Source: an uncultured Lachnospiraceae bacterium
GTDB lineage: Bacteria > Bacillota > Clostridia > Christensenellales > UBA1242
Assembly: GCA_964383665.1 (NCBI GenBank)
Contig: CAYLHO010000002.1
Span: 138,306 to 202,305, forward strand
DNA: 64,000 nucleotides
Direction of reading: 5' to 3'
The notes beneath the pieces are model-generated. The model had not been told where the DNA came from. It did not search any database and was given only the letters and a program-made list of their open reading frames with translations. Below, piece after piece: positions 1 through 29,070 of this stretch. Every line of letters starts with the position of its first letter. Positions within the stretch are counted from its first letter, which is position 1. The position numbers were made by a program, and so were the translations under genes.

Positions 1-57
1 GGAGATGATTATTCTTGTAAGAAAGTGGAAATGTACCTTCAAAAACATGGCAAATAA
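1..57 (+). CDS. 3' end of a CDS that begins upstream of the window (product unknown)
   Basis: Frame 1 is open from base 1 to TAA at 55-57 (...GDDYSCKKVEMYLQKHGK*). It is too short to assign a family. Confidence 0.3.
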   Translation, partial: GDDYSCKKVEMYLQKHGK

Positions 58-113
58 ATTTCTCCTTTAATTTTTGCCAAGGAAAGACAGTTTATATGGT
101 TTTAATATGAAAA

Positions 114-142
114 TTGACAAATTAAAGCAGTTTTGATATAAT
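114..142 (+). promoter_or_regulatory. sigma-A-type promoter for the methyltransferase gene
   Basis: TTGACA (114-119), 17-nt spacer, TGa-TATAAT (134-142). It lies about 27 nt upstream of the ATG at 169. Confidence 0.6.
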
Positions 143-168
143 ACAAAATATAGAAAAAGGGAGGAGTT

Positions 169-825
169 ATGATTGAATCAAAATCCTGGAACTGGGATAT
201 AGTTGACAAAAATGATTTCTACTGGAATTCGCCAGCGCCAGAAATTTATTATCTTGCGGAAAACTGGAAATCTAAAAAACTTAACAGAGTTTTAGATATT
301 GGTTGCGGATTTGGAAGAAATGCAATTTTTTTGGCAAAACATGGTTTCACGCTTGACGGGTTCGATTTGTCTAAAACCAGTGTTGAAACAACAATTGAAA
401 AAGCAAAAAATCAAGGAATCGACTTTTCAAACTTCTTTGTTTCGGATATGTTGCATTTGCCATATGAAGACAATACGTTTGATGTTGTTTTAGCTTTTAA
501 TGTTATTTCTCATACCGACAGAGAGGGATTTAAGCAAATTTTAAATGAAATAAAAAGAGTTTTAAAGCCAAACGGGGAAACATATTTTACTCTTGGCTCA
601 AAGGAATCCTTTTGGTTTAGTAATCCTGTTTGCACATATGTTGATGAGAACACAAGAATACGAGTTGAAGATGGTCCAGAGAATGGGATTCCTCATTTCT
701 ATATTGACGATGACGATTGTTTTGAACTTTTTAACGATTTTAAAATAGTAAAGATTAACGAACTTAGAGAACTTACTCAATATGGAAATTTCAGCCCGCA
801 CTATCATGTTTGGCTAAAGAAATAA
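169..825 (+). CDS. class I SAM-dependent methyltransferase (substrate unknown)
   Basis: Complete 218-aa ORF with a GGGAGGAG SD. It has SAM-binding motif I VLDIGCGFGRN followed by the acidic loop GFDLS, as in the Methyltransf_11/25-like Rossmann fold. Confidence 0.85.
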   Translation: MIESKSWNWDIVDKNDFYWNSPAPEIYYLAENWKSKKLNRVLDIGCGFGRNAIFLAKHGFTLDGFDLSKTSVETTIEKAKNQGIDFSNFFVSDMLHLPYEDNTFDVVLAFNVISHTDREGFKQILNEIKRVLKPNGETYFTLGSKESFWFSNPVCTYVDENTRIRVEDGPENGIPHFYIDDDDCFELFNDFKIVKINELRELTQYGNFSPHYHVWLKK

Positions 826-852
826 GTTAAATAAAATGAAAAAAATTAAAAA

Positions 853-877
853 AGCACTTAAAAAAGTGCTTTTTTTT
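853..877 (+). terminator. intrinsic terminator after the methyltransferase gene
   Basis: Stem AGCACTT / AAGTGCT (853-859 / 864-870), loop AAAA, then a T7 run (871-877). Confidence 0.7.
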
Positions 878-980
878 GATTTTAATGCCAAAATTTTTTC
901 ATTGCCTTATCTTTTTTTCTCTTTTGCCTGTCAATTTTTGATTCCCATTGTTTAATTATTTTTTAAGTTTTAGCGGGGAA

Positions 981-1102: not shown

Positions 1103-2932
1103 TTATTTTTCGAAATCTTGGAAGTTTGTTTTTTGATCATTTTTATTTAAGATTTCGTCGATTGTTACGTTTATAACTTTTCCAACTGCAGGCTTAAATT
1201 CGGTGTTATGATAAACAATCCAAATTATATTTTTATATTGTTTATTGTTTAAATTCATTGTGTCGTAGCCATCGGTAAACACAATTTTGTTGATTTTTGG
1301 GTCTTTAGAAAATTGTTTGGCAGCAAGTTCAAAATCCGTTCCGCCTCTTCCAATAATTTTGAAGTTCTCGATGTCTTTTATGCTTTTAATGTCATTAAAT
1401 CCATAAAATTTTGTGTCGAAACAGCCAACTTTAAGTTTTGATTCTTTTAAAAGCGGTTTAAGTTGCCTTAGGAAACAGATAACAAGAGCATCGCTAACAG
1501 AACCGCTTGTGTCAATTAAAACCTCTGTTTCGGCACGTTCGCTTCTTTCAACATCTTCAATTCTCGATTGGAAGAAATTATCCTCATCGGCGCGTCGAAA
1601 ACTCCAGTTTTCCTCTTCGCTTTCAAGTTCTTTTTTAAGAATTCTGTCCCAGCTTACAACAGGTTTAACATATGTGAGGTCAAAAGTTTTAGTGGAGCTT
1701 GCTGAATCTATTTTAAGTTTTTCTCTAATTTTGTTGCCAAATTTTTCTTTTACTTCTTGATTTTTCTTGCTGAACTCTTCTTCCATCTTTGAGTAGTCAA
1801 CTTTCTCTTGGTTGTTTGAAGGTTTCATTTTTGCGTGGCTATTTTGTTCAATTTTTTCTGCTTTTTTAACAACTTCTTTCCAAATTTTGTGGTTTTGGGT
1901 TGCTTCGCTTTGTTGTTTGGCGCTTGTTGCGCTTCCGTTGTTTACTTCGTTCTGATTTGAGCTTTGATTGTTTTGTTCGTGTTGTTTTGTTTGCTCATTC
2001 TGTTTTTCATTTGAGCCCTGTGCTTTTTGTTGGGTTCCTTGGTTGTTTTGTTGCTTTTGGTTATTTTGACCGCTTTGACCATTTTGATTGTTTTGACTCT
2101 TTTGACCTTGGCCATTTTGTTCTTGCTTGTTTTGTTCTTGCTTGTTTTGTTCTTGCTTGTTTTGTTCTTGCTTGTTTTGTTCTTGAGAATTTTGTTTTTG
2201 ACTGCTTTGGCCTTGTTTATTTTGTCCTTCGGTTTTTTGTTCCCTTCTTTTCTTTAACCAATCCCTTAAGCTTCTTTTCTTTTTCCAGCGTTTCTTTTTC
2301 TTGTCTTTGCTGTTGTTGTTTTGATTTTCGCTTTGCTCTTTTTTGTTTTTGTCTTGATTGGTGTTTTGATTACCATTCTCTTTTTGTTGGTCGTTGCTGT
2401 TTTGACCTTGACTGTCTTTTTTGTTTTCGTCTTGCCCAGAAGAATTGCTGTTGTCTCCGCTTTGTTCTTTGTCTTTGTCTTTGTCTTTGTCTTTGTCTTT
2501 GTCTTTGTCTTTGTCTTTGTCTTGATTTTCTTTTTCTTCAATCAATTTTTTGTATATCGCATCGGCGGATCGTCCCTTTGCTTCTGGCATGTCAATCCAG
2601 TTTTTAATTGAAAGGTTTTGGCTTTTAAGCATTTGATTTATAACCGCGTCGGTTGCAACATTCCAAAGCCAACTGTCTTTGTCTTTGCTTCGGATAATGT
2701 GGTCGAAAGCAACGTGCATAATTTCGTGGGCAAAAACTGCAATTTGTTCGTCATATGTAAGCGAATTCATGAAATTCAGATTGTAATAAACAGCCTTGCC
2801 GTCGGTTTGCGCGGTTGGGGCAGTTGAATCTTCATAAAAATCTAGTTTCGACATTGTAACGCCCAAAAGCGGGAATTTTCTTAAAACCCCGCTTTTTATG
2901 TCTTCAATTAATTTGCTGCTTTCCATGCTCAT
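1103..2932 (-). CDS. putative zinc metallopeptidase (DUF2201_N-like, HExxH) fused to a VWA-like/MIDAS domain through a ~300-aa low-complexity linker
   Basis: 609-aa ORF with a GGAGAAA SD inside the end of the upstream gene (6-nt intergenic gap). N-terminus: FAHEIMHVAFDH...ATDAVINQ (zincin HExxH). C-terminus: LIDTSGSVS ... GRGGTDF ... VFTDGYD, a complete DxSxS..T..D MIDAS. The middle is K/Q/N/E/D/S-rich with (DK)x9 and (QEQNK)x5. Confidence 0.8.
   Translation of the reverse strand: MSMESSKLIEDIKSGVLRKFPLLGVTMSKLDFYEDSTAPTAQTDGKAVYYNLNFMNSLTYDEQIAVFAHEIMHVAFDHIIRSKDKDSWLWNVATDAVINQMLKSQNLSIKNWIDMPEAKGRSADAIYKKLIEEKENQDKDKDKDKDKDKDKDKDKEQSGDNSNSSGQDENKKDSQGQNSNDQQKENGNQNTNQDKNKKEQSENQNNNSKDKKKKRWKKKRSLRDWLKKRREQKTEGQNKQGQSSQKQNSQEQNKQEQNKQEQNKQEQNKQEQNGQGQKSQNNQNGQSGQNNQKQQNNQGTQQKAQGSNEKQNEQTKQHEQNNQSSNQNEVNNGSATSAKQQSEATQNHKIWKEVVKKAEKIEQNSHAKMKPSNNQEKVDYSKMEEEFSKKNQEVKEKFGNKIREKLKIDSASSTKTFDLTYVKPVVSWDRILKKELESEEENWSFRRADEDNFFQSRIEDVERSERAETEVLIDTSGSVSDALVICFLRQLKPLLKESKLKVGCFDTKFYGFNDIKSIKDIENFKIIGRGGTDFELAAKQFSKDPKINKIVFTDGYDTMNLNNKQYKNIIWIVYHNTEFKPAVGKVINVTIDEILNKNDQKTNFQDFEK
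2116..2185. repeat. perfect 15-bp tandem repeat (tttgttcttgcttgt, about 4.7 copies) inside the VWA-peptidase gene
   Basis: Units at 2116, 2131, 2146 and 2161, plus a partial unit at 2176. On the minus strand they encode QEQNK x5. The unit length is divisible by 3. Confidence 0.95.
2468..2521. repeat. perfect 6-bp tandem repeat (gtcttt, about 9 copies) inside the VWA-peptidase gene
   Basis: gtctttgtcttt... run. On the minus strand it encodes (Asp-Lys)x9. Confidence 0.95.
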
Positions 2933-2938
2933 TTTTTG

Positions 2939-3313
2939 CTATTTCTCCGCTTTATAAATTAAACAAAGTGATTGAATTCGCTTCGAAACTTTGTCGATAT
3001 TGCTTGCTGTTAAAATAAATTGCATGTTTTTTGGAAGATTAATTCCATTTATGCTTTTATATTTTAAAAGTCCATAAAATTTTTCTTGCTCTTCTTCGCT
3101 TATTGAATCGATTTTGTCGATAACAAGCATAAATTGCTTTAAACTTTTCGATTTTTCGCTGATTTCCTTAAGCCAAATTGCATTTTCACTTGCAAGATTT
3201 TCGGAAGGGCAAGATGAAGGAAGGACAACTGCAGTTGGAAAATTTTTTGCAGTTAATCCTGTTATAATCATTGGCCATGTTCGGTTGTTATTTAAAACTT
3301 CTAAAATGTCCAT
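2939..3313 (-). CDS. hypothetical 124-aa protein resembling a P-loop-less AAA+ (clamp-loader delta-prime-like) core fragment
   Basis: Its ATG at 3313 overlaps the stop (3301-3303) of the upstream ATPase gene by 13 nt. The stretch FMLVIDKIDSISEEEQEKFYGLLK...MQFILTASN...KRIQSLCLIY resembles Walker B / LLKxLEE / sensor-1 / SRC-like elements of clamp-loader-type AAA+ proteins. No GxxxxGK[ST] motif is present. Confidence 0.55.
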   Translation of the reverse strand: MDILEVLNNNRTWPMIITGLTAKNFPTAVVLPSSCPSENLASENAIWLKEISEKSKSLKQFMLVIDKIDSISEEEQEKFYGLLKYKSINGINLPKNMQFILTASNIDKVSKRIQSLCLIYKAEK

Positions 3314-5811
3314 GATGCACCATTTGCTTTTTTTTGAGTGTTAACATATTTACTGATGTCAATTTCATTAAATTGATAAACAATATCTGTCCAAGAAGCC
3401 TTTGCAATTCGTCCATCGTTTAAACAGCAATATCCGGTTGGGAATTGTGAGGAGTACATAACCTCTTTTGCAAGGCTTTTAAGAAGTAAGTCCTTGCATT
3501 GAGAGCTTGGATGCCCTGAATTGGTGAATGCATCGTTAAGTGCAGAAAGATCATTGCTGTTCTTAAATTCAATTCCAATAGTTTTGTCTTGCCCAAAAAG
3601 CCTTGAACTGTCGTTAATAAATTGATCAAAAGTTAGTTTATATCTAACTTGACGTTGAGGCTTTGCAGGTTCAGGTTGAGGATTTTGAGTTTTAGAATTA
3701 GCTTGCTTTTTTCTTTTAATGTCGTCAAGAGCAATTGCTTTTTCGTTGTCGTTTCCAACCCAAATGCTGTCGAAAGCGGAAAGAATTTCTTCGTCGAGTT
3801 TTTCCGCAATGAAATCTCTAACCTTTTCAATTTGTTGGAAGTTTGCGTGACGAAGCGAAAGAGCAAGTGTGTATTGAACATCAAAGAGAGGTGAAATTTC
3901 GGAATCATCATAGTTGTCGGCTAAAATGTCTTCCATTGTGAGTGGAGGATTTTGAGCGAAACCAACGAATGATTGAGCAATTTTCTCACCAACCTTATTT
4001 GTTATAAGTTCAGCTGCAATAACTCCGTTGTTGTCGTATATTATGTCGGAAATTTGCTCCCAACCGCGAGGGTCAATTGTATATTTTGGTGGCTCTTCTG
4101 GGTCGTAGTTGGAATAGAAAACATCTTTACCATATGTTGCAACAAATGCGGAAACAATTGGGTGGATAACATTTTTTGTTGGGTCGTTTGCTCTTTGTCT
4201 GCTTCCCCATTCAAGCCAGTCCTTGATGTTTAAAGGTAAGTAGATGTGTGCGTCAAATCTTCTGAAAAGTGGCTCTGGCATGTTGTAAGCCGCTTCGCTT
4301 TCGTCTTTGCTGTTTCCCGCTGAAACAACAACAACGTTGTCTGGAAGAACTCCAAGATTTGGACCAATTGATCTGTTTAAAATTAAATCGTAAACCAAAC
4401 TTTGGGTTGTTCCCTTAACATTTGTTATTTCATCAATGAAAAGAACATGATTCTTGTTTGGTTCTTTTTTGCATTTTTCGCATAAATTTGTGTACCAGTT
4501 TGGAGGAACCCAAGTTCCGCCTAATGTTGTTGCGGAGTTAGGGTAGATGTTTTTTCCAAGAACTTCCTCTGGGAGCATTCCATTTCTTAAAACAATTGAT
4601 GTGAAATCTGGGTCGATGTCTCTAATTCTTCTGCTTTTTCCAACACCGCTTGCACCGTGGAGCATGAAAGGCTTGCCTTGATTGATGTAGAATCTGATTT
4701 GATCATCAATTGAAAGCGGAGCTGATTGAACAGTTATTCCATACCCTCTCGATGGTGTCTTTCTTGAATTTTGAATTGTTTTTTTCTTTGTAATTTTTGA
4801 TTGATTTGTTTCTTTCATTTGACTTGCGTCCATAAATGCCTCTCTTATAAAACTTTTATTTGTAAAATCTCCGCCGCCGTCAGTACCATACATCGGATTT
4901 CCATTGCTTTTGATGTTATTAACATTAATTCCGTTGAGATATCCTCTGATTGAGCTGTTTTGCCAAAGGCTGTAATAATCTCCAGAACTAGTAAGATGGA
5001 ATGGAATTGATCCGTGGATAGCATGATCGCTTCGAGCATCAATAAAGTCGTCTTGATTCGTTCCTTTTGGGTTTAATTTTTTTGGCAACCTGTCCCAATT
5101 TAATATTCGCCAAACAATTGGTTCAACTTTAACCCATAAAAATTTTTGACGAGACGTAATCGTTATTCCGTTGCTTAAGTGCATCTCTGAAAAAGAATTG
5201 GTTCTGGTTTTAACCCTAACATATTTTTGACCCTTATAGCTGTATTCGTCGTGATAAATAATTTTTTTTGTGGAGTCAACTCGCCCAATATATTTTTTTC
5301 CTGTTGCAGCAAGCGAGCCGGAAGAGAATAAATTTTCAAGTTCGTTGTTCTTGTCTGCTCCAACAAATGATTGTGGATATTCCCCAAATTCAATTGTGTG
5401 GAGTGTCTGCTTTCTGTATGTAACTGTTGAAAGTTGAAACATTGAGGGGAAGTGCATTTTGTCCGATATAATTTTAGACGCATCAATGTGCATTCTTGGA
5501 ACAATTGAAATGTAATCGAGCAAGGTGTCGCCATAATCTAGTCCGCCGGTCCAGTATATTATGTCAACGCGGTTTGGATCTTGTTCTGCAATTGAACGGA
5601 GCCAATAAGAAGGTCCATTGTCGAATAAATGGTTTAATATTCCATAGTCGGTTGGGTGTGCCTTTTTTATATATTTGTATTTAGACATTTTTTCGATGTC
5701 GTCAAGTGAATCGATAAAAACCAAATCTTCAGTTGTAAAATTTGCGCTTTTATCACCTTGAAGACTTGAGTTTTGAAGTTTAACAGGCTTAAGATATTTA
5801 ACTAGGTCCAT
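3301..5811 (-). CDS. MoxR/AAA_5-like AAA+ ATPase with a ~340-aa N-terminal DUF6273-like domain and a ~130-aa C-terminal extension
   Basis: 836-aa ORF. Walker A LHGASGVGKS, Walker B HVLFIDEITN, sensor-1 VVVVSAGN, and PEPLFRRFD typical of MoxR/AAA_5. The N-terminus carries YWLRS...IVPRMHID and SLWQNSSIRGYLNG...FIREAF motifs. Confidence 0.85.
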   Translation of the reverse strand: MDLVKYLKPVKLQNSSLQGDKSANFTTEDLVFIDSLDDIEKMSKYKYIKKAHPTDYGILNHLFDNGPSYWLRSIAEQDPNRVDIIYWTGGLDYGDTLLDYISIVPRMHIDASKIISDKMHFPSMFQLSTVTYRKQTLHTIEFGEYPQSFVGADKNNELENLFSSGSLAATGKKYIGRVDSTKKIIYHDEYSYKGQKYVRVKTRTNSFSEMHLSNGITITSRQKFLWVKVEPIVWRILNWDRLPKKLNPKGTNQDDFIDARSDHAIHGSIPFHLTSSGDYYSLWQNSSIRGYLNGINVNNIKSNGNPMYGTDGGGDFTNKSFIREAFMDASQMKETNQSKITKKKTIQNSRKTPSRGYGITVQSAPLSIDDQIRFYINQGKPFMLHGASGVGKSRRIRDIDPDFTSIVLRNGMLPEEVLGKNIYPNSATTLGGTWVPPNWYTNLCEKCKKEPNKNHVLFIDEITNVKGTTQSLVYDLILNRSIGPNLGVLPDNVVVVSAGNSKDESEAAYNMPEPLFRRFDAHIYLPLNIKDWLEWGSRQRANDPTKNVIHPIVSAFVATYGKDVFYSNYDPEEPPKYTIDPRGWEQISDIIYDNNGVIAAELITNKVGEKIAQSFVGFAQNPPLTMEDILADNYDDSEISPLFDVQYTLALSLRHANFQQIEKVRDFIAEKLDEEILSAFDSIWVGNDNEKAIALDDIKRKKQANSKTQNPQPEPAKPQRQVRYKLTFDQFINDSSRLFGQDKTIGIEFKNSNDLSALNDAFTNSGHPSSQCKDLLLKSLAKEVMYSSQFPTGYCCLNDGRIAKASWTDIVYQFNEIDISKYVNTQKKANGASWTF

Positions 5812-11947: not shown

Positions 11948-14900
11948 ATGAAGAAAATTATGATTTTTTCAATAATCCTAATGCCACTTATTGTTTTAGG
12001 AATTATGTTTCTTAGCGGGTCGATTGTTAAGATGTCAACATATCTTTATGTTGAATATATCGAATTTGTTGATGACGAAATTGTCCTTAACAAAACTTCA
12101 GGCGAAAATGTTTCCCATGCTCTTAAAGTTAACGTTTTCCCAGTTCTTGCAAACAACAAAGAAGTTGAATTTTGGAGTGCAAATGAGAATATAGTTTCGG
12201 TTGATGAAAACGGGAATTTAACAAGCAGAGATTTTGGCTCGACATATGTTTATGCAAAAAGCAAAGAAAACGGAGCGAAACAAGCAACTTGTAAGGTTGT
12301 TGTTACAAGCGAAAAAGTTCACAAAATTTGGGCGGAAAATTCAGTTTCAACAATGTATGTTGGCTCAACCCATCGTTTTAACGTTAAATATGCTCCTTTG
12401 GAAGCAAAGGAAGTTTCTTTTAACATAACTTCATCAAATCCAAGCGCGCTTTATGTTTCCCAGGACGGAGAACTTGTTGCAAGGGCAAAGGGAGCTTCAA
12501 CAATAACAATTTCTCTTAAAAGTGATCCAAACATAACCTGTTCGTTTGATGTTGATGTTAAAGTTAAGGCAGAGGGAATTTGGATTGAAGATTCGTCGTC
12601 GGTTACTTCGGCAAAAACAAGTTTCAGTTTCCCAGAAATTAAGTTTTCGCCTTCAACGGCGGAAGAAAAAATTTCCTATTTTTCAAGCGACTCCTCAATT
12701 GCAACTGTTAACAGCGAAGGGCAAATTCAATTTTTGAAAAGGGGAACTGTTGTTATAACTGCGAAAGCGGAAAACGTTAACGATGAGGTTATAAAATCAT
12801 ACACTTCAACTTTTGGATATTTCAAAAATGTTTCGTTCTCAACTCTTAACGAAAGGGAACTAAATTTTGAGGATTGGCAGAATTCAGATTTAAACTTGAT
12901 TTGGACGGGTTTCCCAGAAGACGGAAATTTGGAAAACATTTCGTTAGTAAGTTCGAACGAAAGCGTTGTTAAAGTTGAAAACGGAAAACTTAAAGTTGTT
13001 GGCGGCGGGGAGGCAACAATAACAATTGTTGCAAAAACCTCGGAAACGGAAACAACAACCGCTTCAATAACTCTTAATGTTAACAGAAAAATTGATTCAA
13101 TTTCTTTTGACCGTCCAAATTTCAGTTTTGTTTCGTCAAGGGCAATTGACCTTGCAACTGCGTTCCCAGCCGACGCAACAGAAAGAATTGAATATGAAAT
13201 TTCTAACACCGAAATTGCAACAGTTGAGAACGGGAAATTGGTTTTTTCGTCGGCTGTTTTAAACAATAAATGCGGAAAAGTTAGCATAACAGCAAAAACA
13301 AAAAGTGGACTTGCAAAAACAATAACTGTTGTCTATTTGGATTCCTCGGTTCAAAGAATTGACTTGGGAAATCAAGACCAATTAAATTTAACGCTTCCAA
13401 AAACCGGTGAACCTTCTCTTTCTTTTGCTGTTGTTTCAACTCGAGATGATTTGAACGATTTAAGCTTAAAAATTGAAAGTGGAAGCGATGTTTTAACTCA
13501 AAATGGTTATATTTTCACACTTAAAAACAACGGTAGCGCTGAAATTGGTGTCTATTTTAACGGCGAAACAAACCCAAGCAAAAGAATTGGTGTAAGCGTT
13601 AAGAAAGATGTTGAGGAAATTCAAAATATAAAAGTTTTTGCAACATGGGAAGGGCTCGATTCCAAACAATATTCTTCAAGCGAAAGAATTTATTCATCAA
13701 GCAAGGTTTTTGAAATTTCATATAATCTTTTCCCTTCCGGAACAACAAAAACAGAGGCGGATTTAGAAATTGTTAGCGGCGATGCTGCTCAAATTGTTGA
13801 CGGAAAAATTTGCTTTGTTAAAGCAGGAAAGGTTAGGGTTAGAATTTTTGCCGACCAAGCAAGCGAGGAGTTTGAAATTGAAAGCACGTTCATGCTTCCA
13901 AATGAAAATACGGTTGTAACAAAAAATGTTGAAATTTTTAAAGGTTCAAGCATTTCAATTTGGAGTTTGATTGAGGTTTTGCCAGAAAATGCCGACAGAA
14001 ATAACATAACATTCCAAACATCTTCAACGTCAATTTCAATTGATGAAAACGGGAACATTTTTGGCGTTTGTGGCGGGGAAGCAAAAATTGAAGTTTCAAT
14101 TCCAACTCCAAATCAAACAATTTCAAAGGAAATTAATGTTTTTGTTAAGGAAAATGCAGAAAAAGTTGTGGTTTTGGGCAATGAAATTGAATTTATAACC
14201 AATCAAACTTATAATTTTAAAAACAAATTTAAGGTTTATCCAGAAACTGCAAACCTTAAAACCCAAATAACATTTGGGGTTGAAAATGAAAATGTTGCCT
14301 ACATAAACTCCGAAGGAAACCTTGTTTTTAAAGAAGCGGGACGCTGCGTTGTTTATGCAAAACTTGAAAATGATTTCGTTGCTCGAATTTCTGTTGCATA
14401 TGTTGGAAACTCTCTTGTTTTAAGAGAAACAACAGCGAATGTTCTTGAGGGAACGAAATTTGTTGTTATTCCTTCAAGTGAGGTTCTTTCAAACGCGAAA
14501 TATAGCGATGATTTTATTTCGTCCTCGGAAAATATTTCTGTTTCAAACGGTCTTTTCATAACTGTTTTGGGAAGCGGAGAAGTTACTTTTGCCGGAGAAA
14601 CTTATTCGCTTAATTGCGTTAAAAAGATTACAAATGTTTCAATTTCGGCTGAAAATGCGTTGGACATCGACTTGCGAGGCGGGAAAAACATAACGGGTCT
14701 TTCAAGTTTGAAACTTGTTGGAAATGTTTTTGGCGCGCAAAGCGAATTTATTGAAACAACTTTTGCTTCCAGCAATTTGACCGTTGCAACGATAAGCCAA
14801 ACAGGTGTTTTAAGTTTCAACTCTGCCGGCGAGGTTGAGATAACTTTCGAGGCAAAATTTGTTGATTCTGTTTTGGGAGCAAACAAAATTTTGCATTCAA

Positions 14901-17900
14901 CAAAAATTAAAATTCAATCAACTTTTGGGGAGATTAATGAAATTGTTCCTTCTCAAACGGGGAAATTTGAATTCACAATTGACGACGAAAACCCGATAAA
15001 CAACATTATAAACATTTGCTCATATGTTAATTCCTTCCCAACGCAAGTTTCAATGACAAGCGAAAATGTTAAACTTGTTCTTTCAAACAACTTGCTTGCA
15101 AACGTTAATGGTCTTGAAATTCAATTTGTTAAAGGGGGAACTCTTGGCGTTGAAATTCAAATTAAACAAGGAGATAAATTCGTTCTTGCTTCAAAAATTG
15201 AATTTGAAATTAAGAAAAATGCCGAAGCAATTTATGTTAACGAAAAAGAAATTGTTAACATGAAAACATATTCATGGAACAAGTCAACTTTGTTCCTTAA
15301 TCCTGTTGCATTCCCAGAGGATTCAAACATCAACAACAAAATAACATGGGAAGTTGTTGAAAACAATGGGGTTGCGGAAGTTGATGCTTCAAAAAACAAA
15401 ATTGTTTTCAAAAAGACAAATGAAACAATTTCAATCAAGTTTACCCTTGGGGAAAACGAAAATATAAAAGAATTTGTTGTTTATCTTAAAGCAACAACAA
15501 TAACGTTTGAGGTTGATGTTGAAAGCGAAACATTTGTTGTCCCTTCAAAAGAACCTTTCACTTTTGTTTCCTCCGAAGGCGAAATTTTAAATTTAATTGT
15601 TAATTTTGGAAGCGAGTTCGCAAGTTTAAGAGAACTTTCGGAAGGTGTTTATGTTATTGATGAATCCTGCGTTGGAAACGTTTTAATAAGTGTTGATGGC
15701 AACGAGAGAACAGTTAAACTTGTTTCAACTTCCAACATAAACAAAATTGAAAACGTTGGAATTTCCGATGTTAAAATGAACGGCGAAACCGAAGTTGTTT
15801 CGGCAATTGAAAATGGTTTAAGCCTTGTAACTGCGTCGAAAGAGGTTGGAATTGAATATATCGTTCCAGTTGGCTATAACAAACTTGGGAACTTAATCAG
15901 TTGTCAAATTGCAACCTCAAATTCCGAAATCGCAACAATTGATGGAACAAAAGTTGTTTTCAAAAAAGCTGGAATTGCTAAAATAACATTAACAATTGCT
16001 TTCGACGATGCCTATGGCGAAAAGAGCATAGCTTTCAGTTTTGAAATTAGATCGACGTTTGGGAACATTGAGGAATTTAACGTTCCGCAAGATTCCTATT
16101 CGTTCCTCTATGACGAACTTGAGCAAAGCGAATTGACTTTCGACATTCTTTCATCGCTCACTCGCGTTTCGCCAAGTTATGGCGAAGTTTCGTTGCCAGA
16201 GGTTTCAATAAATAATAACTCTGTTATTAAATTCATAAACAATAAATTTGAAATTGTTGGGTCGGGAACGGCAAAAATTGAAATTAAATGGGGTAATGCA
16301 ACAAAAATAATCAATGTTGGAATCAGCAAGCAAATTGATGGACTTAAATTTGTTGATAACGGGCAGCCATTAACTCAAATTGTTATTAAAACAAAAACTT
16401 ATAACCTTAACTATGAAATTCTTGCAACAAACAGCGCGTTTGCTCCAACTTTGCGCGATGTTGAAATAACGGTTGTTGGCAATGCAACAATAAACGGAAA
16501 GGTTTTAACATTTAATGAGGTAAACGAAAAATGCGTTGTAACCGTTAAGGCAAAGGACGGAAATGCAACCGCGAACCTTGTTGTTGTTTGCGTAAGCGAA
16601 GATGTTAATGTTATTTCTGCAACAAGTTCTCTTAACAGAACTGTTGTTAAAGCGGGCGAAACAAACATTTTCAATTTCGATTTTGGTGAAACGTTTGTTG
16701 AGCTTTTAAATCCATCAAACGATTCAATCGTTTTCAATTCAACCCTTGGAACTTTTAAGGTAACAAAGGGGCTTGAAGGACAACTTCAATTAAGCAATGG
16801 ACAAATTATAACAATTATTGCAACTCAAGAAGTTGGGGGAATTAATTTCAAAACAGGAGCATGGGAAAGCGGAAAAATAACAGCTCTTGGAAGTTCTTCC
16901 GACGGAAAGGGGATTGACCTTAACGAAATTTATGGAGCAAGCATAAGCCCTGTTTCGGCAAGGACCGAAGCTGGAGCATATGTTGTTGAAATTCTTGTTG
17001 ACGATCCGTCGATTGCGTATGTTGAAAATGGTTTCTTATATTTCATTAAGCAAGGAGAAGTTACTTTAACATTTAAAGCGGGCAACGTTGAAGAAAAACG
17101 AAAGATTGAAAGCACACTGGGGTTCGCAAAGAGCGTTGAATTTGAAAATGCTGACGGACTGCAATTTGAATTTACAACAAGGGAATATGTTTTGCCTGAA
17201 AATATGTTCAGTGTTTTTCCTTCCGATGCATATATTATTGGCGCAACGTTCAAGTCGCTTGACGAATCTGTTTTCAAGGTTGAAAATGGAAAACTCATTT
17301 TTGTTGACGGCGGGACTGCAAACCTTGAACTTTCTGTTGAGATTTCGCGAACTGAAACAATAAGCATCACTAAAGAAGTTTATGTTGTTAATCGTGCAAC
17401 AGGAATTGACTTTTTCGATGGGGAAATTAAAGTTGGAAGAATTGTTAAAAATGCAAAACCAAATTCAACAATGGTTTTAAGTTATGTTATTAATTCGGTT
17501 GGCGTGCTTTCGCCATATAACGTTGTTTTCGAGTCGTCGAATGAAAGCGTTGCAACAATTGCAAATGGAATTGTAACCTTTGTTGGAAACGGAACAACAA
17601 CCATAACCGTTAAAGTTCAAAGCAAATTAAACGACGAAACCCAGTTTGATGCAGTTGCAAGCTTGAAAATTGTTAACAACGAAAATTATGAGATAAAAAG
17701 CATAACCCAAGCTGACAACGAAATCTATTTGGAAAGCGAAAGCGCGAACTTGGGAGTTATCTATCCAAAATTTAATATGTCAGATTTAGATTTTGAGTTT
17801 GTTCAACAAAGCGGATTGGACGTTGTTTCAATTGGCGAAAACGGGGAAATAAACAAAATTTCAGGCGGCGAGGCAACTGTTTTAATAAGAGCCGAAGGGT

Positions 17901-20326
17901 TCGAAAAACTTGTAACAATTTATGTTCATAAGAGAACTGGAATTATTCTTGAAAAAGAAAACGTTGTAACCTCAAAAACGAATTGGAAAATTGGCGTTGA
18001 ATTCAGCCCTTCCGATTCTCTTTCAAGAAAAACAATCAACTATGTTTCAAGCGATGAAAACGTTGCAACAGTTGAAAACGGAAACATTGTTTTCCTTAAA
18101 GAGGGAAGTGTTGTTATAACAATTAATGTTGTTTATAATGGCGAAATTGAAACTTCAAAACAATTCAAAATTCGAAGCACTTTTGGCAAGGTTGAAAGTT
18201 TCAACATTGACGTTTCAAGTTGGACGCTGAAAAACGGCGAGAGCAAGGTTATTTCAATAAGCAACGTATATCCAAGCGATTTCTCGGGCGAACTTTCGAT
18301 TTCTTCGAACAACGAAACGGCATTTAAACTTGAGAAATTAAGCGAGATAAGCTTTAAAGTTGAAGGCTTGAAGCGCGGAACTGGAACAATTGTTGTTAAG
18401 TTCAGTGGAAGCGATTCCTTTGCTCAAAATGTTTCAATTGAGGTTAAACAAATTTCAACATCTGTTGAGTTTCAACAAAACGGGAAAACCGTTTCAAGCA
18501 TTAAATCTTTTGCCAATGTTGTTGATTTAACAGCAATTGTTAAACCTTTCGATTCTAATGAAACCGCGGTTGAATGGGAAGTTGAAAGCGGGAATGCAAC
18601 CGTCAGCGAAAACGGGCAAGTTACATTTGTTGTTGGGGCATATGGCGAGGCAGTTATCGTTGCAAAAGCAAAGGACGGCGGAAGCCAAGGGAAGATAACA
18701 ATAACCTATGTTCAAGAAATTGATGGGTTCAACATTTCACATTCAGGAAAAACAGTTGCTTCGGGCGGAACAGTTTTCTTGGGGTGGAACGTTAACGACC
18801 TCATTTTGGGAATTGAAATTTTGCCAGCAACGCTTAAAGATTTTAACATGTTCGAATATTTCACAATAACTTCTTCAAACGGAAGCACTGCTCAAATTGA
18901 CGAGAATGGAAAAATTCAAATTGCAACTTTAAGCCACGAAACAAATCCATCATTTACTGATGTTATAACAATTAAATATAAGGATTTATATACTAAAACA
19001 ATTAATATTATAAGAGATGGAATTCAAAGAGTTGATTTTGGGAATCACGATAACGAACTCGATTCAACATATGGCTTGCAACAAATGAGATTGTTTGGGA
19101 ACAGGTCGTATTACGATGGAATCCAAAATTACTACCGAATGACTGTTAATGTTTATCCAAACAACAACCTTTCGTCAAACATCATTTGGGAAACTTCCAA
19201 CTCAAACGTTTCTGTTGTTAATGCGAACGGTTATGCTGATATCTATTTCAACAGCATTTCGGGAAGCACTGTTCAAGAAATTTATGATGATGATTTCAGC
19301 AAGGGCGAAATAACAGTTTATGCAAAAAATCAAGCCGGGGAACTCCTTTATTCCTACACTTTCCATATTGTTAATGCAGTTAACGTTTTCGATCAAGCAG
19401 GTTATGTTAACGGCGGAAGTGAAATTGTTTTGCAAAAGAGTTTGGGACATGACGACCAAGCGGCGCTCATTGAAAAAGGAAGTTATGCACGTCTTGACGC
19501 ATATGCTGCAAAAACAACCATTTTTGGAAATGGATTCTTAATTAACTTTGCCCACAGAAACAAAGACACAAGCGAAGCTTCCTATACAAACTATGAAAAC
19601 ATTCAAGTTAACATTAAAAATGCAATAAATTTAACAATCCAAGGCTCAAACTACGACAGCACGCGTGAGTCGTATAACATTGAACTTACGGGAACAGAAA
19701 AACTTTCCTATTGCGAAATTTACTATATGTATCGTTCGGTTGAAAAAACTTCGGGGAACATTTATGTTAAACGCTGTTTATTCAGAACGTTCAAGTCATC
19801 TGGAATAATTGGGTCGGCAAACGACACGAAAAACTTATATCTTGAGGACATAATCATGTTCGACGTTGGAACTCGTGCAATTGAACTCCAAAAAAATGGA
19901 ACAGCATATCTTAAAGGCTTCATCGATGTTTATAACTTCCAAAACAAAGATGCAATTAAAGAATACACATCAATTGGAGCAAGCACCATTATAAACAGGT
20001 TTAACGCAGGCAACATGGTTGTTGAAGTTAACGGCGAAAAATGGGTTAACATGGTTGGAATCTCTTCCAAAGGAACAGATTTAAAAATTTACTATTATAA
20101 TTACGATACGGGAGAATATGAATATAAAGAAAACGGGGACCACACTTCCGCATATGGCCTTACAAGAATAACTTATGGACTTGGAAGTTTGGGAATAACC
20201 GCTTGGTCCTATACGAATGGATCGCAACCGCATTTAACCTATGCCAACGAATTTAAAGATGACGGCTCACTTAATGTTGAATATATGATTTCAACAGTTC
20301 CAAAAATCAAACGTCTTACAACTTAA
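11948..20326 (+). CDS. giant (2792 aa) membrane-anchored surface protein with about 20-25 Big_2-type Ig-like repeats and a non-Ig C-terminal domain (possible beta-helix)
   Basis: GGGAGGAAAG SD 14 nt after the permease stop. N-terminal hydrophobic anchor MKKIMIFSIILMPLIVLGIMFLSG. The signature S[SN]xxxVATVxxxGxVxxxxxGxxxIT recurs throughout, for example SSDSSIATVNSEGQIQFLKRGTVVITAKA and SSDENVATVENGNIVFLKEGSVVITINV. The last ~440 aa lack this pattern. No LPXTG or choline/SLH motif was seen. Confidence 0.85.
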   Translation: MKKIMIFSIILMPLIVLGIMFLSGSIVKMSTYLYVEYIEFVDDEIVLNKTSGENVSHALKVNVFPVLANNKEVEFWSANENIVSVDENGNLTSRDFGSTYVYAKSKENGAKQATCKVVVTSEKVHKIWAENSVSTMYVGSTHRFNVKYAPLEAKEVSFNITSSNPSALYVSQDGELVARAKGASTITISLKSDPNITCSFDVDVKVKAEGIWIEDSSSVTSAKTSFSFPEIKFSPSTAEEKISYFSSDSSIATVNSEGQIQFLKRGTVVITAKAENVNDEVIKSYTSTFGYFKNVSFSTLNERELNFEDWQNSDLNLIWTGFPEDGNLENISLVSSNESVVKVENGKLKVVGGGEATITIVAKTSETETTTASITLNVNRKIDSISFDRPNFSFVSSRAIDLATAFPADATERIEYEISNTEIATVENGKLVFSSAVLNNKCGKVSITAKTKSGLAKTITVVYLDSSVQRIDLGNQDQLNLTLPKTGEPSLSFAVVSTRDDLNDLSLKIESGSDVLTQNGYIFTLKNNGSAEIGVYFNGETNPSKRIGVSVKKDVEEIQNIKVFATWEGLDSKQYSSSERIYSSSKVFEISYNLFPSGTTKTEADLEIVSGDAAQIVDGKICFVKAGKVRVRIFADQASEEFEIESTFMLPNENTVVTKNVEIFKGSSISIWSLIEVLPENADRNNITFQTSSTSISIDENGNIFGVCGGEAKIEVSIPTPNQTISKEINVFVKENAEKVVVLGNEIEFITNQTYNFKNKFKVYPETANLKTQITFGVENENVAYINSEGNLVFKEAGRCVVYAKLENDFVARISVAYVGNSLVLRETTANVLEGTKFVVIPSSEVLSNAKYSDDFISSSENISVSNGLFITVLGSGEVTFAGETYSLNCVKKITNVSISAENALDIDLRGGKNITGLSSLKLVGNVFGAQSEFIETTFASSNLTVATISQTGVLSFNSAGEVEITFEAKFVDSVLGANKILHSTKIKIQSTFGEINEIVPSQTGKFEFTIDDENPINNIINICSYVNSFPTQVSMTSENVKLVLSNNLLANVNGLEIQFVKGGTLGVEIQIKQGDKFVLASKIEFEIKKNAEAIYVNEKEIVNMKTYSWNKSTLFLNPVAFPEDSNINNKITWEVVENNGVAEVDASKNKIVFKKTNETISIKFTLGENENIKEFVVYLKATTITFEVDVESETFVVPSKEPFTFVSSEGEILNLIVNFGSEFASLRELSEGVYVIDESCVGNVLISVDGNERTVKLVSTSNINKIENVGISDVKMNGETEVVSAIENGLSLVTASKEVGIEYIVPVGYNKLGNLISCQIATSNSEIATIDGTKVVFKKAGIAKITLTIAFDDAYGEKSIAFSFEIRSTFGNIEEFNVPQDSYSFLYDELEQSELTFDILSSLTRVSPSYGEVSLPEVSINNNSVIKFINNKFEIVGSGTAKIEIKWGNATKIINVGISKQIDGLKFVDNGQPLTQIVIKTKTYNLNYEILATNSAFAPTLRDVEITVVGNATINGKVLTFNEVNEKCVVTVKAKDGNATANLVVVCVSEDVNVISATSSLNRTVVKAGETNIFNFDFGETFVELLNPSNDSIVFNSTLGTFKVTKGLEGQLQLSNGQIITIIATQEVGGINFKTGAWESGKITALGSSSDGKGIDLNEIYGASISPVSARTEAGAYVVEILVDDPSIAYVENGFLYFIKQGEVTLTFKAGNVEEKRKIESTLGFAKSVEFENADGLQFEFTTREYVLPENMFSVFPSDAYIIGATFKSLDESVFKVENGKLIFVDGGTANLELSVEISRTETISITKEVYVVNRATGIDFFDGEIKVGRIVKNAKPNSTMVLSYVINSVGVLSPYNVVFESSNESVATIANGIVTFVGNGTTTITVKVQSKLNDETQFDAVASLKIVNNENYEIKSITQADNEIYLESESANLGVIYPKFNMSDLDFEFVQQSGLDVVSIGENGEINKISGGEATVLIRAEGFEKLVTIYVHKRTGIILEKENVVTSKTNWKIGVEFSPSDSLSRKTINYVSSDENVATVENGNIVFLKEGSVVITINVVYNGEIETSKQFKIRSTFGKVESFNIDVSSWTLKNGESKVISISNVYPSDFSGELSISSNNETAFKLEKLSEISFKVEGLKRGTGTIVVKFSGSDSFAQNVSIEVKQISTSVEFQQNGKTVSSIKSFANVVDLTAIVKPFDSNETAVEWEVESGNATVSENGQVTFVVGAYGEAVIVAKAKDGGSQGKITITYVQEIDGFNISHSGKTVASGGTVFLGWNVNDLILGIEILPATLKDFNMFEYFTITSSNGSTAQIDENGKIQIATLSHETNPSFTDVITIKYKDLYTKTINIIRDGIQRVDFGNHDNELDSTYGLQQMRLFGNRSYYDGIQNYYRMTVNVYPNNNLSSNIIWETSNSNVSVVNANGYADIYFNSISGSTVQEIYDDDFSKGEITVYAKNQAGELLYSYTFHIVNAVNVFDQAGYVNGGSEIVLQKSLGHDDQAALIEKGSYARLDAYAAKTTIFGNGFLINFAHRNKDTSEASYTNYENIQVNIKNAINLTIQGSNYDSTRESYNIELTGTEKLSYCEIYYMYRSVEKTSGNIYVKRCLFRTFKSSGIIGSANDTKNLYLEDIIMFDVGTRAIELQKNGTAYLKGFIDVYNFQNKDAIKEYTSIGASTIINRFNAGNMVVEVNGEKWVNMVGISSKGTDLKIYYYNYDTGEYEYKENGDHTSAYGLTRITYGLGSLGITAWSYTNGSQPHLTYANEFKDDGSLNVEYMISTVPKIKRLTT

Positions 20327-27168: not shown

Positions 27169-27197
27169 AAAAAACGCTTTGATAAAAGCGTTTTTTT
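27169..27197. terminator. bidirectional intrinsic terminator between convergent genes
   Basis: A-run, stem CGCTTT / AAAGCG (27175-27190), loop GATA, T7 run. Confidence 0.75.
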
Positions 27198-28239
27198 AAA
27201 TCACATTGTTTTGAACCCTTTTAATCATTTGATTAATTTCCCTGTTTGCATTCATAACAATGATTTCTGTGTTTGGATTATCGGATTTCCAAACCCTAAA
27301 AATCTCATCGGCAAAGGCTTGACCAATTTTTGGAACCAAACGGAAATCAAGGCAAATTTCTTTAAACTTATTCATTCCTGTCATTAGGCGTCTTGCTTGC
27401 GAACGAGAAATGTAGATTGATTCACTTTCATTATATTCAAGGCGTTTAACTGAAATAATGGTTTTGCAAAAACCTTCATCTGGATCTGCAAATTGATTGA
27501 AAACTTCGCTTAAAGAAATTTTATTTGCAATGCTAATTTTGAATGCAACAGCTGTCCCTTTAAATTGCTTATTTTTTTGAACAATTGCTTTATCGTCGTC
27601 GGGTTTGGAAAGATTTGCGGTTGAGAATGTTAAGTCGTTTGCAAGAATTAAGAAATAGTCGGCGCATTTTGACGAAAAGAAAATTCCTTCTCCCGTGTGT
27701 GATTTTGGGTTCGTTGTAACTTTCCCTTTCATAAGTTCGAAAACCGAATGTTCAATATTTTCAAGATTAAATTTTCTTTTAATTTTCTCGAAAATTCCAA
27801 CCCCATTATCAATTACATAGGTTGTAACATCAACCGACGTTATGCTCATAATAACTTTAATTTCATTTCCTTCGGAATGTTCAATTGCGTTGTTAAAAAT
27901 TTCTGAATAGATATAATCAAAAATTTCTCGTGCATTTTGGGGGAGGAATGAAACTAAAGGTCGAACCTCGCTTAACGATTCAAATTCACTTATTTTTCCA
28001 ATTGAATATTTAAATTCCTTATCAACAGGAACAAGCGTAAGTTTTTGGGTTCTTCCAACTCGTTTTTTTCGAATAACATTATCATTTGAGAGCTTATTAA
28101 TAAGCTTATAAATTGCTTGAACTGAAACTCCAAATTCATTTGAAAGGTTATGGATTAATTCCGCATCTAAAAGATGTTGGGAAATATTAACTAAAATTTT
28201 TTCAATTAATGTGTTTTTATTTTCTTTACTTATCGACAT
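27196..28239 (-). CDS. wHTH + GHKL (HATPase_c, SpoIIAB-like) + STAS-like (DUF4325) fusion protein
   Basis: 347 aa, GGAG SD. N-terminal HTH LSNEFGVSVQAIYKLINKL. Bergerat-fold boxes: N box EIFNNAIEHS, G1 VIDNGVGI, G2 HTGEGIFF. The C-terminal SRSQARRL...DFRLVPKIGQAFADEIFRVW matches the DUF4325 STAS-like signature. Confidence 0.75.
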   Translation of the reverse strand: MSISKENKNTLIEKILVNISQHLLDAELIHNLSNEFGVSVQAIYKLINKLSNDNVIRKKRVGRTQKLTLVPVDKEFKYSIGKISEFESLSEVRPLVSFLPQNAREIFDYIYSEIFNNAIEHSEGNEIKVIMSITSVDVTTYVIDNGVGIFEKIKRKFNLENIEHSVFELMKGKVTTNPKSHTGEGIFFSSKCADYFLILANDLTFSTANLSKPDDDKAIVQKNKQFKGTAVAFKISIANKISLSEVFNQFADPDEGFCKTIISVKRLEYNESESIYISRSQARRLMTGMNKFKEICLDFRLVPKIGQAFADEIFRVWKSDNPNTEIIVMNANREINQMIKRVQNNVI

Positions 28240-28288
28240 GTTTTTTCTCCATTGTAATTATATCCCTTGTGTCAAGATATATAACTAA

Positions 28289-28408
28289 ATTGTAAACTTA
28301 AATTTAACAATTGTCAACTTAAATTTAACAATTGTAAACTTAACAAAGGTTAATTGTAAACTTAATGATGATTGATTGTAAACTTAAGGTCTTTAATTGT
28401 AAACTTAA
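28289..28408. repeat. six direct copies of the 13-bp motif ATTGTAAACTTAA, phased every 21-22 bp (putative operator or iteron array)
   Basis: Copies start at 28289, 28310 (variant ATTGTcAACTTAA), 28331, 28353, 28375 and 28396. The spacings are 21, 21, 22, 22 and 21 bp. Copies 1-3 belong to a longer 21-bp unit (…ATTTAACA spacer). The array lies between divergent genes. Confidence 0.9.
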
Positions 28409-28440
28409 TTTTGCACTTTTGCAATTTTAAACGATTTGTT

Positions 28441-28488: not shown

Positions 28489-29070
28489 ATGGACTATCAA
28501 GAAGAGTTTAAGAAAATTTTTAAGGAAAACATAAAGCGCGAAGGCTCTGACAAACTTTTGGAGTGGCTTGAAAAAAGTGATTTTTTCTCTGCGCCTGCGT
28601 CAACAAAATTCCACAGCGCCCATGAAGGCGGTCTTTGCGAGCACAGCGTTAAGGTTTACGAAAGATTTTTGAAACTTGTTAGAAACGAGTTTGGCGAAAA
28701 TTTTGAGGAAAAAATTTCAAAAGAAAGCATCGCATTAATTGCGCTTTGTCATGACGTTTGCAAAGTTAACACCTATAAAACAGACTTTCGAAATGTTAAG
28801 GAAAACGGGGCATGGGTTCAAAAGCCATATTATGCCGTTGACGACAAGTTGCCATATGGTCATGGCGAAAAATCGGTTTACATAATCAACGGATTCACTC
28901 GCCTTTCTCGCGAGGAAGCGCTTGCAATAAATTGGCACATGGGCGCGTTTGACCTTCGAGTTCAAGGCGGAAGTTATGCGCTTAAAGATGCATATTTGGC
29001 ATATCCAACCGCGCTTCTTCTCCACATTGCCGATGTTATGGCAACATATTTAGACGAGGAACAGGGTTAA
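28489..29070 (+). CDS. HD-domain phosphohydrolase (YhaM-like HD domain without the OB fold)
   Basis: 193 aa, AGGAAGGA SD. Motifs APASTKFHSAHEGGLCEHS ... ALCHDVCK ... YGHGEKS ... LLLHIADVMAT, consistent with an H..HD..D metal-binding set. Confidence 0.75.
   Translation: MDYQEEFKKIFKENIKREGSDKLLEWLEKSDFFSAPASTKFHSAHEGGLCEHSVKVYERFLKLVRNEFGENFEEKISKESIALIALCHDVCKVNTYKTDFRNVKENGAWVQKPYYAVDDKLPYGHGEKSVYIINGFTRLSREEALAINWHMGAFDLRVQGGSYALKDAYLAYPTALLLHIADVMATYLDEEQG

Follow-up and report, generated by a model that had tools for sequence, protein, structure and literature searches.

In a 64,000-nucleotide (nt) stretch of DNA from an uncultured Lachnospiraceae bacterium (hereafter the window), a minus-strand gene encodes a 609-amino-acid (aa) protein in which a putative metallopeptidase of the zincin type is followed by a VWA domain, with a low-complexity insert of 218 aa (residues 133-350) between the two. 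We found that this insert is real, polar and disordered, that at least three in-frame DNA repeat arrays within it differ among near-identical strains, and that family members normally carry a polar low-complexity insert at this position, the window protein being an extreme case. The initial annotation, made from the sequence alone, had called so large a disordered insert unusual in a bacterial cytoplasmic enzyme; within the family, it is no peculiarity of this gene. The explanation that we favour, with a probability of about 0.72, is that the insert is a length-tolerant flexible tether evolving by replication slippage at a site where insertions are tolerated throughout the family. All positions are those of the window, and the coordinates of the features are collected in Table 1.

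Seven residues (K, Q, N, E, D, S and G) make up 89% of the insert (Q49, K40, N38, S20, E19, D16 and G13), in agreement with the almost exclusive use of these residues described initially. The length of about 300 aa given there shrinks to 218 aa, and the term hyper-charged was overstated, since charged residues account for 37% of the insert and Q + N for 40%. Ten residues are hydrophobic and two aromatic, and the net charge is +10. The (DK)9 run described earlier was recovered at aa 138-155 (2468-2521), inside the perfect core of a wider period-6 array that has 98% matches in Tandem Repeats Finder (TRF), and the perfect 15-base-pair (bp) repeat of 4.7 copies was likewise found, encoding four QEQNK units followed by QEQN. 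Copies within the arrays are codon-identical, including the use of AAG for Lys, a codon found at only 5 of the 50 Lys positions outside the linker. Decayed arrays flank the perfect ones, among them arrays of periods 30 and 45 at 2115-2242, which indicates older rounds of expansion. The repeat units of 6, 15 and 3 bp are all multiples of three, and the reading frame is unbroken across 650 nt of repeats. An on/off phase-variable contingency locus was rejected on the grounds that the units are multiples of three, that the arrays lie inside the open reading frame (ORF) and that all observed alleles are in frame. No comparable low-complexity stretch was present in the 39 other ORFs of the window (about 18,400 aa), and a TRF score above 100 was reached, among coding tandem arrays of the window, by those of the insert alone, indicating that the insert does not reflect a genome-wide bias. 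The strongly basic patch noted earlier was also confirmed, aa 209-233 carrying a net charge of +13. It is very hydrophilic, with a hydrophobic moment of just 0.37, and is therefore unlikely to form an amphipathic helix that binds membranes. Other ORFs over the repeats (1900-2607, 2027-2257 and 2321-2611 on the plus strand, and 2266-2541 on the minus strand in an alternative frame) were rejected as genes; their Leu/Phe/Cys/Val-rich or KT-repeat products are the mechanical outcome of stop-poor repeats.

Repeat number was then compared among strains in Logan contigs. Contig L011 (SRR17244096), which is 99.6% identical to the window over 3,572 columns, carries three copies of GACAAA and lacks exactly 36 bp, or six units; it ends in an (AAC)8.7 run at the place where the window has AAC three times and then AGC. 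Contigs L016 (SRR14160744) and L017 (SRR14160746), about 99% identical to the window, have 1.7 copies of the 15-bp unit, lack exactly 45 bp (three units) and begin in an (AAC)9 run. The copy numbers of the window and of strains 99.0-99.6% identical to it are thus 9 versus 3, 4.7 versus 1.7 and 3 versus at least 9, and the flanks on both sides of the arrays are 99.8-100% identical to the window. Within the insert, L016 differs from the window by four non-synonymous and two synonymous substitutions. The initial annotation had suggested recent expansion or ongoing slippage and a linker of hypervariable length, and had proposed a comparison of repeat number in orthologues; the numbers differ at three arrays, the copies are codon-identical, and insert length in the family spans more than an order of magnitude (below), all in line with these suggestions.

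The longer alleles left a different trace. Five contigs that are 99.84-99.98% identical to the window (L009, L010, L012, L013 and L014) all end 27-28 nt into the GACAAA array, and L015, 100% identical over 2,144 nt, begins within the 15-bp array. Since Logan contigs by construction hold each 31-mer once (PMC12424806), breaks are expected at perfect arrays longer than k, and the breaks inside the arrays therefore indicate that perfect arrays longer than k exist in at least five samples. The short alleles of 3 and 1.7 copies fit into one 31-mer together with unique flanks and were thus directly observed in reads. The exact 609-aa protein was absent from a collection of 15 billion proteins, as is expected when k=31 assemblies break at the arrays. 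The neighbouring ATPase, used as query, did return a protein 100% identical to it together with a small surrounding cluster, and the NCBI contig with the identical ATPase did not contribute a 609-aa product to the collection. Repeat-rich proteins are probably under-represented in such collections.

A query from which the insert had been removed retrieved 1,607 homologues; 104 proteins were aligned, and inserts were measured by alignment columns. Among 120 listed of the 1,607 homologues, protein lengths were 370 aa (a fragment) and 412 aa up to 701 aa. In the alignment, the segment from L130 to H348 ranged from 13 to 217 aa (median 41.5, third quartile 76) and was longest in the window protein. 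A second variable segment, from W351 to E384, measured 19-164 aa and is 32 aa long in the window protein. None of the 104 proteins lacks a polar insert, the minimum being 13 aa at the first site and 19 aa at the second. The pooled first inserts contain Q (23.5%), N (14%), G (11%), E (10.6%), D (9%), K (8.6%) and S (8%), and nearly no hydrophobic residues. In a Clostridia metagenome-assembled genome from the Hadza gut (L001), the first site holds a long insert rich in N/S/Q/D, about 250 aa by eye. A scan of genome contigs gave one relative, 41% identical, and a scan of metagenome contigs gave none.

Closer comparisons localized the changes. The nearest relatives (P0001, P0002 and P0003) are 63-69% identical overall to the window protein, which differs from them by exactly two extra blocks, (DK)9 and a block of about 75 aa with the QEQNK repeats; insert lengths in this four-member subclade are about 78, 112, 124 and 217 aa. 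The motif KKKKRW.KK.SL.DW[FL]K is kept in all four members, with K212, K214, R215, W216, K218, K219, S221, L222, D224, W225 and K227 invariant, while the flanking insert sequence turns over. This basic RW..SL.DW motif is confined to the subclade, and only there is the middle region net positive, most homologues being net negative (-1 to -49). Within clusters of long-insert proteins at 90% identity or more, internal insertions and deletions (indels) fell almost only in the variable polar regions, the exceptions lying near the termini or in one truncated member of the P0115 cluster. The indels measured 6 and 31 aa in the P0054 cluster and 3, 9, 9 and 17 aa in the P0032 cluster, and members of the P0116 cluster carry (EK)1-5 where the window protein has (DK)9. 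P0001 and P0214, 98% identical to each other, differ in a perfect 12-aa tandem duplication, KQEQQNNQPKPS, that directly follows the basic motif.

The modules on either side of the insert were identified by profile and structure comparison. PF13203 (DUF2201_N, 'putative metallopeptidase') matched aa 19-199 (E=1.4e-24, 87.6 bits; gathering cut-off 23.2) and PF09967 (DUF2201, 'VWA-like') matched aa 471-589 (E=7.5e-11, 42.7 bits; gathering cut-off 26.4), and both models stayed above cut-off in the insert-free construct. The zinc-binding HExxH motif is present as HEIMH (aa 69-73). In the 104-sequence alignment, H69, E70, H73, H78, W90, N91, T94, D95, S122 and Y127 of the core and H348, W351, E384, F387, N391 and W428 C-terminal to the insert are invariant, as are D474, S476, S478 and D554 of the metal-ion-dependent adhesion site (MIDAS), with T553 nearly so, and G555 of the VWA domain. 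With Foldseek, the C-terminal domain matched integrin I domains and NorD of the NorQD complex (probability 1.0), and the whole protein matched many phage 'metallopeptidase/VWA-like' proteins, mostly of 380-450 aa. A stand-alone phage protein of 153 aa matched the N-terminal core alone (TM-score 0.74, root-mean-square deviation 2.0), which indicates that the zincin core is complete ahead of the insert. Pfam gave a weak M48 match for the 609-aa protein, and in a search of the PDB with the family profile the top match was the polyglutamine (polyQ) tract of TBP, which is purely compositional; minigluzincin MJ1213 (E=0.003) was matched weakly, and HtpX (E=0.065) and BepA (E=0.3-0.6) more weakly still. 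Neither a signal peptide nor a transmembrane segment was found in the protein (Kyte-Doolittle 19-residue maximum 1.37).

The structure was predicted with AlphaFold2 (AF2) from the 104-sequence alignment, and confidence (predicted local distance difference test, pLDDT) is given here as means of 10-residue blocks unless noted. The disorder check proposed in the initial annotation gave the expected outcome, with pLDDT below 50 for aa 157-219 and 276-337. Block means were 87-98 for aa 1-140, and the last helix of the core (123-148) enters the DK repeat with falling confidence. Beyond the insert, the means of blocks 341-350, 351-360 and 361-370 were 64, 95 and 84, helices 349-366 and 380-411 had block means of 84-98, and the VWA domain (428-597) had 75-97. 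The insert had earlier been placed between the catalytic and MIDAS domains. It does follow the zincin core and precede the VWA domain; its boundaries, however, are invariant Y127 on one side and invariant H348/W351 on the other, and the DUF2201_N match bridges the junction in the insert-free construct (residues 19-240). Since this model covers both sides and a conserved helix follows the insert, the insert lies inside Pfam's DUF2201_N and not simply between two domains.

The copies being codon-identical, and the closest relatives lacking exactly two repeat-encoded blocks, the insert grows and shrinks as in-frame A-rich repeats of 3, 6 and 15 bp slip during replication, with the frame always kept. 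Most likely, we infer, it forms a flexible, solvated tether between the zincin head and a helical-plus-VWA adaptor, which would let the peptidase head move freely with respect to the adaptor as the latter works with the neighbouring MoxR-like AAA+ ATPase. Judged from the family alignment, the exact length of the insert appears to be little constrained, as fits a role as spacer, and a polar, non-hydrophobic composition appears to be maintained. Selection would act on composition and on the clade-specific +13 motif with its Trp residues, the sole selected sequence element, and not on length. The motif is probably a binding site for a polyanion or a partner protein; binding of a polyanion could be envisaged for this patch only.

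Several observations weigh against this picture or narrow it. A tether is suggested by disorder and by the lack of constraint on length, and the latter would also fit a neutral insert with no function. AF2 predicted a helix at aa 222-274, comprising the basic patch and the QEQNK repeat, with block means of 58-87, so that part of the insert may be a stiff helix and not random coil. The DK and QEQNK patterns are not the canonical ER/K of single alpha-helix spacers; EK and EEKRK runs occur in relatives at the position of (DK). Invariant H348 and W351 hint at a more specific role, for example docking back on the peptidase. The ATPase gene is frameshifted in three samples, and the whole cassette may accordingly be under relaxed selection. 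Finally, the 9.7 and 4.7 copies of the window come from one assembly, and the k=31 contigs support long arrays, not these counts.

The competitor to which we give real weight, unlikely as we consider it, is that the insert is neutral, produced without function as an A-rich tract slips in a surface loop open to any polar sequence, in a cassette that is possibly decaying in this lineage. Unconstrained length would follow directly from it, given 13-217 aa in the family, as few as 13 aa at the site in some members and polymorphism at three sites between strains that share at least 99% identity, and the four non-synonymous against two synonymous changes between L016 and the window agree with it; it is above all the ATPase frameshift in three samples that keeps it standing. 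Pure neutrality is harder to reconcile with the retention of a polar insert at both sites in all 104 members, with a composition that is consistently polar and free of hydrophobic residues, with an ORF intact through 650 nt of repeats, and with a basic motif that is kept across 63-69% identical relatives while its surroundings turn over. An origin of the repeats as an assembly artefact (collapsed, expanded or chimeric sequence) in a metagenome-assembled genome has next to no probability. The absence of the exact protein from the protein collection and the breaking of all Logan contigs of the species inside the arrays might suggest it, but such breaks are expected from the 31-mer rule (PMC12424806) and show that at least five samples hold perfect arrays longer than k; in addition, the flanks agree with the window at 99.8-100%, the alleles of 3 and 1.7 copies are seen directly in reads, and comparable inserts occur in hundreds of independent assemblies. 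An artefact is thus excluded for the existence of the arrays and for their polymorphism, though not for the exact copy numbers of the window.

The initial annotation had also raised binding of nucleic acid or teichoic acid and condensate formation, and we consider it quite improbable that the insert binds polyanions, forms condensates or behaves like a prion and so concentrates or switches the peptidase-VWA protein. Under such a scheme, the protein would self-associate through its Q/N-rich tracts and bind nucleic acid or teichoic acid through the +13 patch. Q + N make up 40% of the 218 aa, the patch has conserved Trp residues, the strongest PDB match of the profile is the compositional one to the TBP polyQ tract, and bacterial prion-like domains rich in Q/N are known, for example in C. 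botulinum Rho (PMC4703818). However, with 37% charged residues and two aromatics the segment is poorly suited to amyloid formation or sticker-driven phase separation, most homologous inserts are net negative in their middle region, so that polyanion binding would not be a family property, and the basic motif is limited to one small subclade. A further idea, drawn by analogy with the C-terminal tail of minigluzincin zymogens and in our view a long shot, is that the helix with H348/W351 docks on the zincin active site and that the MoxR-like ATPase pulls on the VWA side, releasing it, the insert acting as a tunable tether for latency; in a variant of it, the Q/N-rich tract could drive switchable self-assembly. 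If this were true, changes in length or in the basic motif would tune the activation threshold of a conflict or quality-control protease, and the threshold would differ from strain to strain or even within a population.

Q-linkers and in-frame repeat polymorphism are both well known, and the insert is an ordinary instance of slippage-driven linker growth that leaves the understanding of such systems unchanged. Q-linkers, reportedly described by Wootton and Drummond in 1989, are interdomain tethers rich in Q/E/S/R/P in cytoplasmic regulatory proteins of bacteria. Like them, the insert is Gln-rich, polar and without hydrophobic residues, lies between folded modules, is predicted to be disordered and is poorly conserved in sequence and length; in contrast to Q-linkers of typically 15-25 aa, it is about 10 times longer, is also N/K-rich, and combines perfect DNA repeats with a conserved basic motif. 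The Ser-Asp dipeptide repeat region of ClfA/Sdr proteins in S. aureus is an in-frame variable-number tandem repeat, and it shares with the insert a dipeptide repeat made from a short in-frame unit, strain-variable copy number and the character of an extended spacer. Those proteins, however, are anchored in the cell wall, with the repeat spanning the wall and facing the host, whereas the window protein has neither signal peptide nor transmembrane segment. With minigluzincins and M48-like zincins (MJ1213 projannalysin 4qhf, HtpX and BepA) the peptidase core is shared by profile, but the sequence relationship is marginal and those proteins lack a VWA fusion and a low-complexity insert.

A pair of a MoxR AAA+ ATPase and a vWA protein with an N-terminal metallopeptidase has been described as a chaperone-cochaperone pair of jumbo phages (Iyer et al. 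2021, PMC7824862). The window protein agrees with these DUF2201/MoxR pairs in both Pfam domains, HExxH, the MIDAS and an AAA+ ATPase upstream in a conserved cassette. The listed phage versions, mostly 380-450 aa, are too short for such an insert, whereas the chromosomal Clostridia clade has a variable one, 218 aa here, and the cassette of the window adds a 124-aa protein and an 836-aa ATPase with an N-terminal extension of about 370 aa. The prion-like domain of C. botulinum Rho resembles the insert as a Q/N-rich disordered insertion in a cytoplasmic enzyme of a Clostridia-type organism, and the insert is far more charged (37%) and has almost no aromatic or hydrophobic residues (PMC4703818); no amyloid core was identified in it, nor was one tested for. 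Low-complexity regions of prokaryotic proteins have been surveyed at large scale (PMC6821194). What is new concerns the uncharacterised DUF2201 family, for which no functional study is apparent from the titles and abstracts of four papers that use the term once or twice each: three polymorphic sites and two conserved elements around and inside the insert are documented. The locus shows, at the level of coordinates, how a long disordered insert of a bacterial enzyme of the cytoplasm is built and rebuilt as in-frame repeats slip. It also points to a site that is permissive across the DUF2201 zincin-VWA family, and it draws attention to the H348/W351 helix and the RW..SL.DW motif. In practical terms, such arrays break k=31 assemblies.

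Table 1 Features of the zincin-VWA gene, its insert and the neighbouring cassette genes in the window.
Feature	Position	Strand	Basis or remark
Gene for 609-aa zincin-VWA protein	1103..2932	minus	ORF; Pfam DUF2201_N and DUF2201
Minimal zincin core, aa 1-132	2537..2932	minus	HEIMHVAFDH at 2699-2728
Low-complexity polar insert, aa 133-350 (218 aa)	1883..2536	minus	Composition, AF2, homologous inserts
Perfect (GACAAA)x9.7 array, encodes (DK)x9	2466..2523	minus	Polymorphic between strains
AAC AAC AAC AGC (NNNS, aa 205-208)	2309..2320	minus	Long (AAC)n in other strains
Basic patch KKKKRWKKKRSLRDWLKKRREQK, aa 211-233	2234..2302	minus	Sole conserved island of the insert
Perfect 15-bp x4.7 array, encodes (QEQNK)x4 + QEQN	2115..2185	minus	TRF 100%; polymorphic
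Decayed 9-bp and 27-bp repeats, GQ/NN-rich stretch	2055..2107	minus	TRF 72-80% matches
Conserved helix directly after the insert, aa 348-366	1835..1891	minus	Invariant H348, W351; AF2 helix 349-366
Second conserved helix, aa 380-411	1700..1795	minus	E384, F387, N391 invariant; AF2
VWA domain, aa 428-597	1142..1651	minus	MIDAS motif DTSGS at 1499-1513
124-aa cassette protein	2939..3313	minus	Between ATPase and VWA genes
836-aa partner ATPase, putative divergent AAA+ of MoxR/dynein-like type	3301..5811	minus	Sub-threshold AAA matches

In every related locus examined (L001, L002, L003-L008 and same-species contigs), the ATPase gene lies upstream of that for the VWA protein, and the 124-aa protein is encoded between the two in L001, L002, L004 and same-species contigs but not in the P0006 loci. 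The 836-aa protein has Walker motifs, and matches to AAA_3 (20.7 bits, cut-off 27), AAA_5 (18.2 bits, cut-off 22) and AAA covered the full domain below threshold. Several of its homologues carry precomputed PF07726 (AAA_3) or PF07728 (AAA_5) matches, and one is named 'AAA family ATPase'; sequence and profile searches of the PDB with the ATPase gave no match. Its N-terminal extension has no Pfam family in the window protein, and some homologues carry PF19789; the lengths of homologues ran from about 500 aa (likely fragments) to 1,191 aa. The 124-aa protein gave weak matches to DNA polymerase III gamma/tau and Avs1b alone and has no Pfam family; by eye it resembles a degenerate AAA domain, with a Walker-B-like LVIDKID and a sensor-like ILTAS motif. 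On the cassette, PADLOC detected no convincing defence system, with weak matches to DolB and Avs1b alone, NCBIfam gave nothing convincing, and the whole cassette, compared as DNA with phage genomes in distant mode, gave no match. The locus is chromosomal, with ABC transporter genes close by and ftsQ/A/Z at 29-33 kb of the window, about 26-30 kb from the cassette.

Variation was also seen outside the insert. Contigs L012, L013 and L014 carry a 1-bp deletion at about 5201 (ATPase codon 204) and are otherwise identical to the window; the deletion splits the ATPase into ORFs of 211 and 627 aa. In L011, a 3-bp insertion and two single-nucleotide polymorphisms lie at most 15 nt from the same spot. 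Inactivation of the cassette in some strains is one possibility, a local mutational hot spot near 5201 another. On the other flank, L019 (SRR22923251) is 93% identical to window positions 1-897 over a methyltransferase gene and loses synteny directly after it, with a KwaA-like (Kiwa) gene and ankyrin-repeat genes in place of the VWA-ATPase cassette; this flank may be a variable, island-like region. Farther away, an intergenic tandem array of about 5.7 copies of 21-22-bp units (AATTGTAAACTTAA...) lies at 28288-28409, between a HATPase_c/DUF4325 gene (27196-28239, minus strand) and an ORF at 28489-29070, upstream of ftsQ/A/Z. In addition, a 2,792-aa ORF at 11948-20326, with weak Big_2 and Ig-like matches in the corresponding Logan contig, probably encodes a large surface protein.

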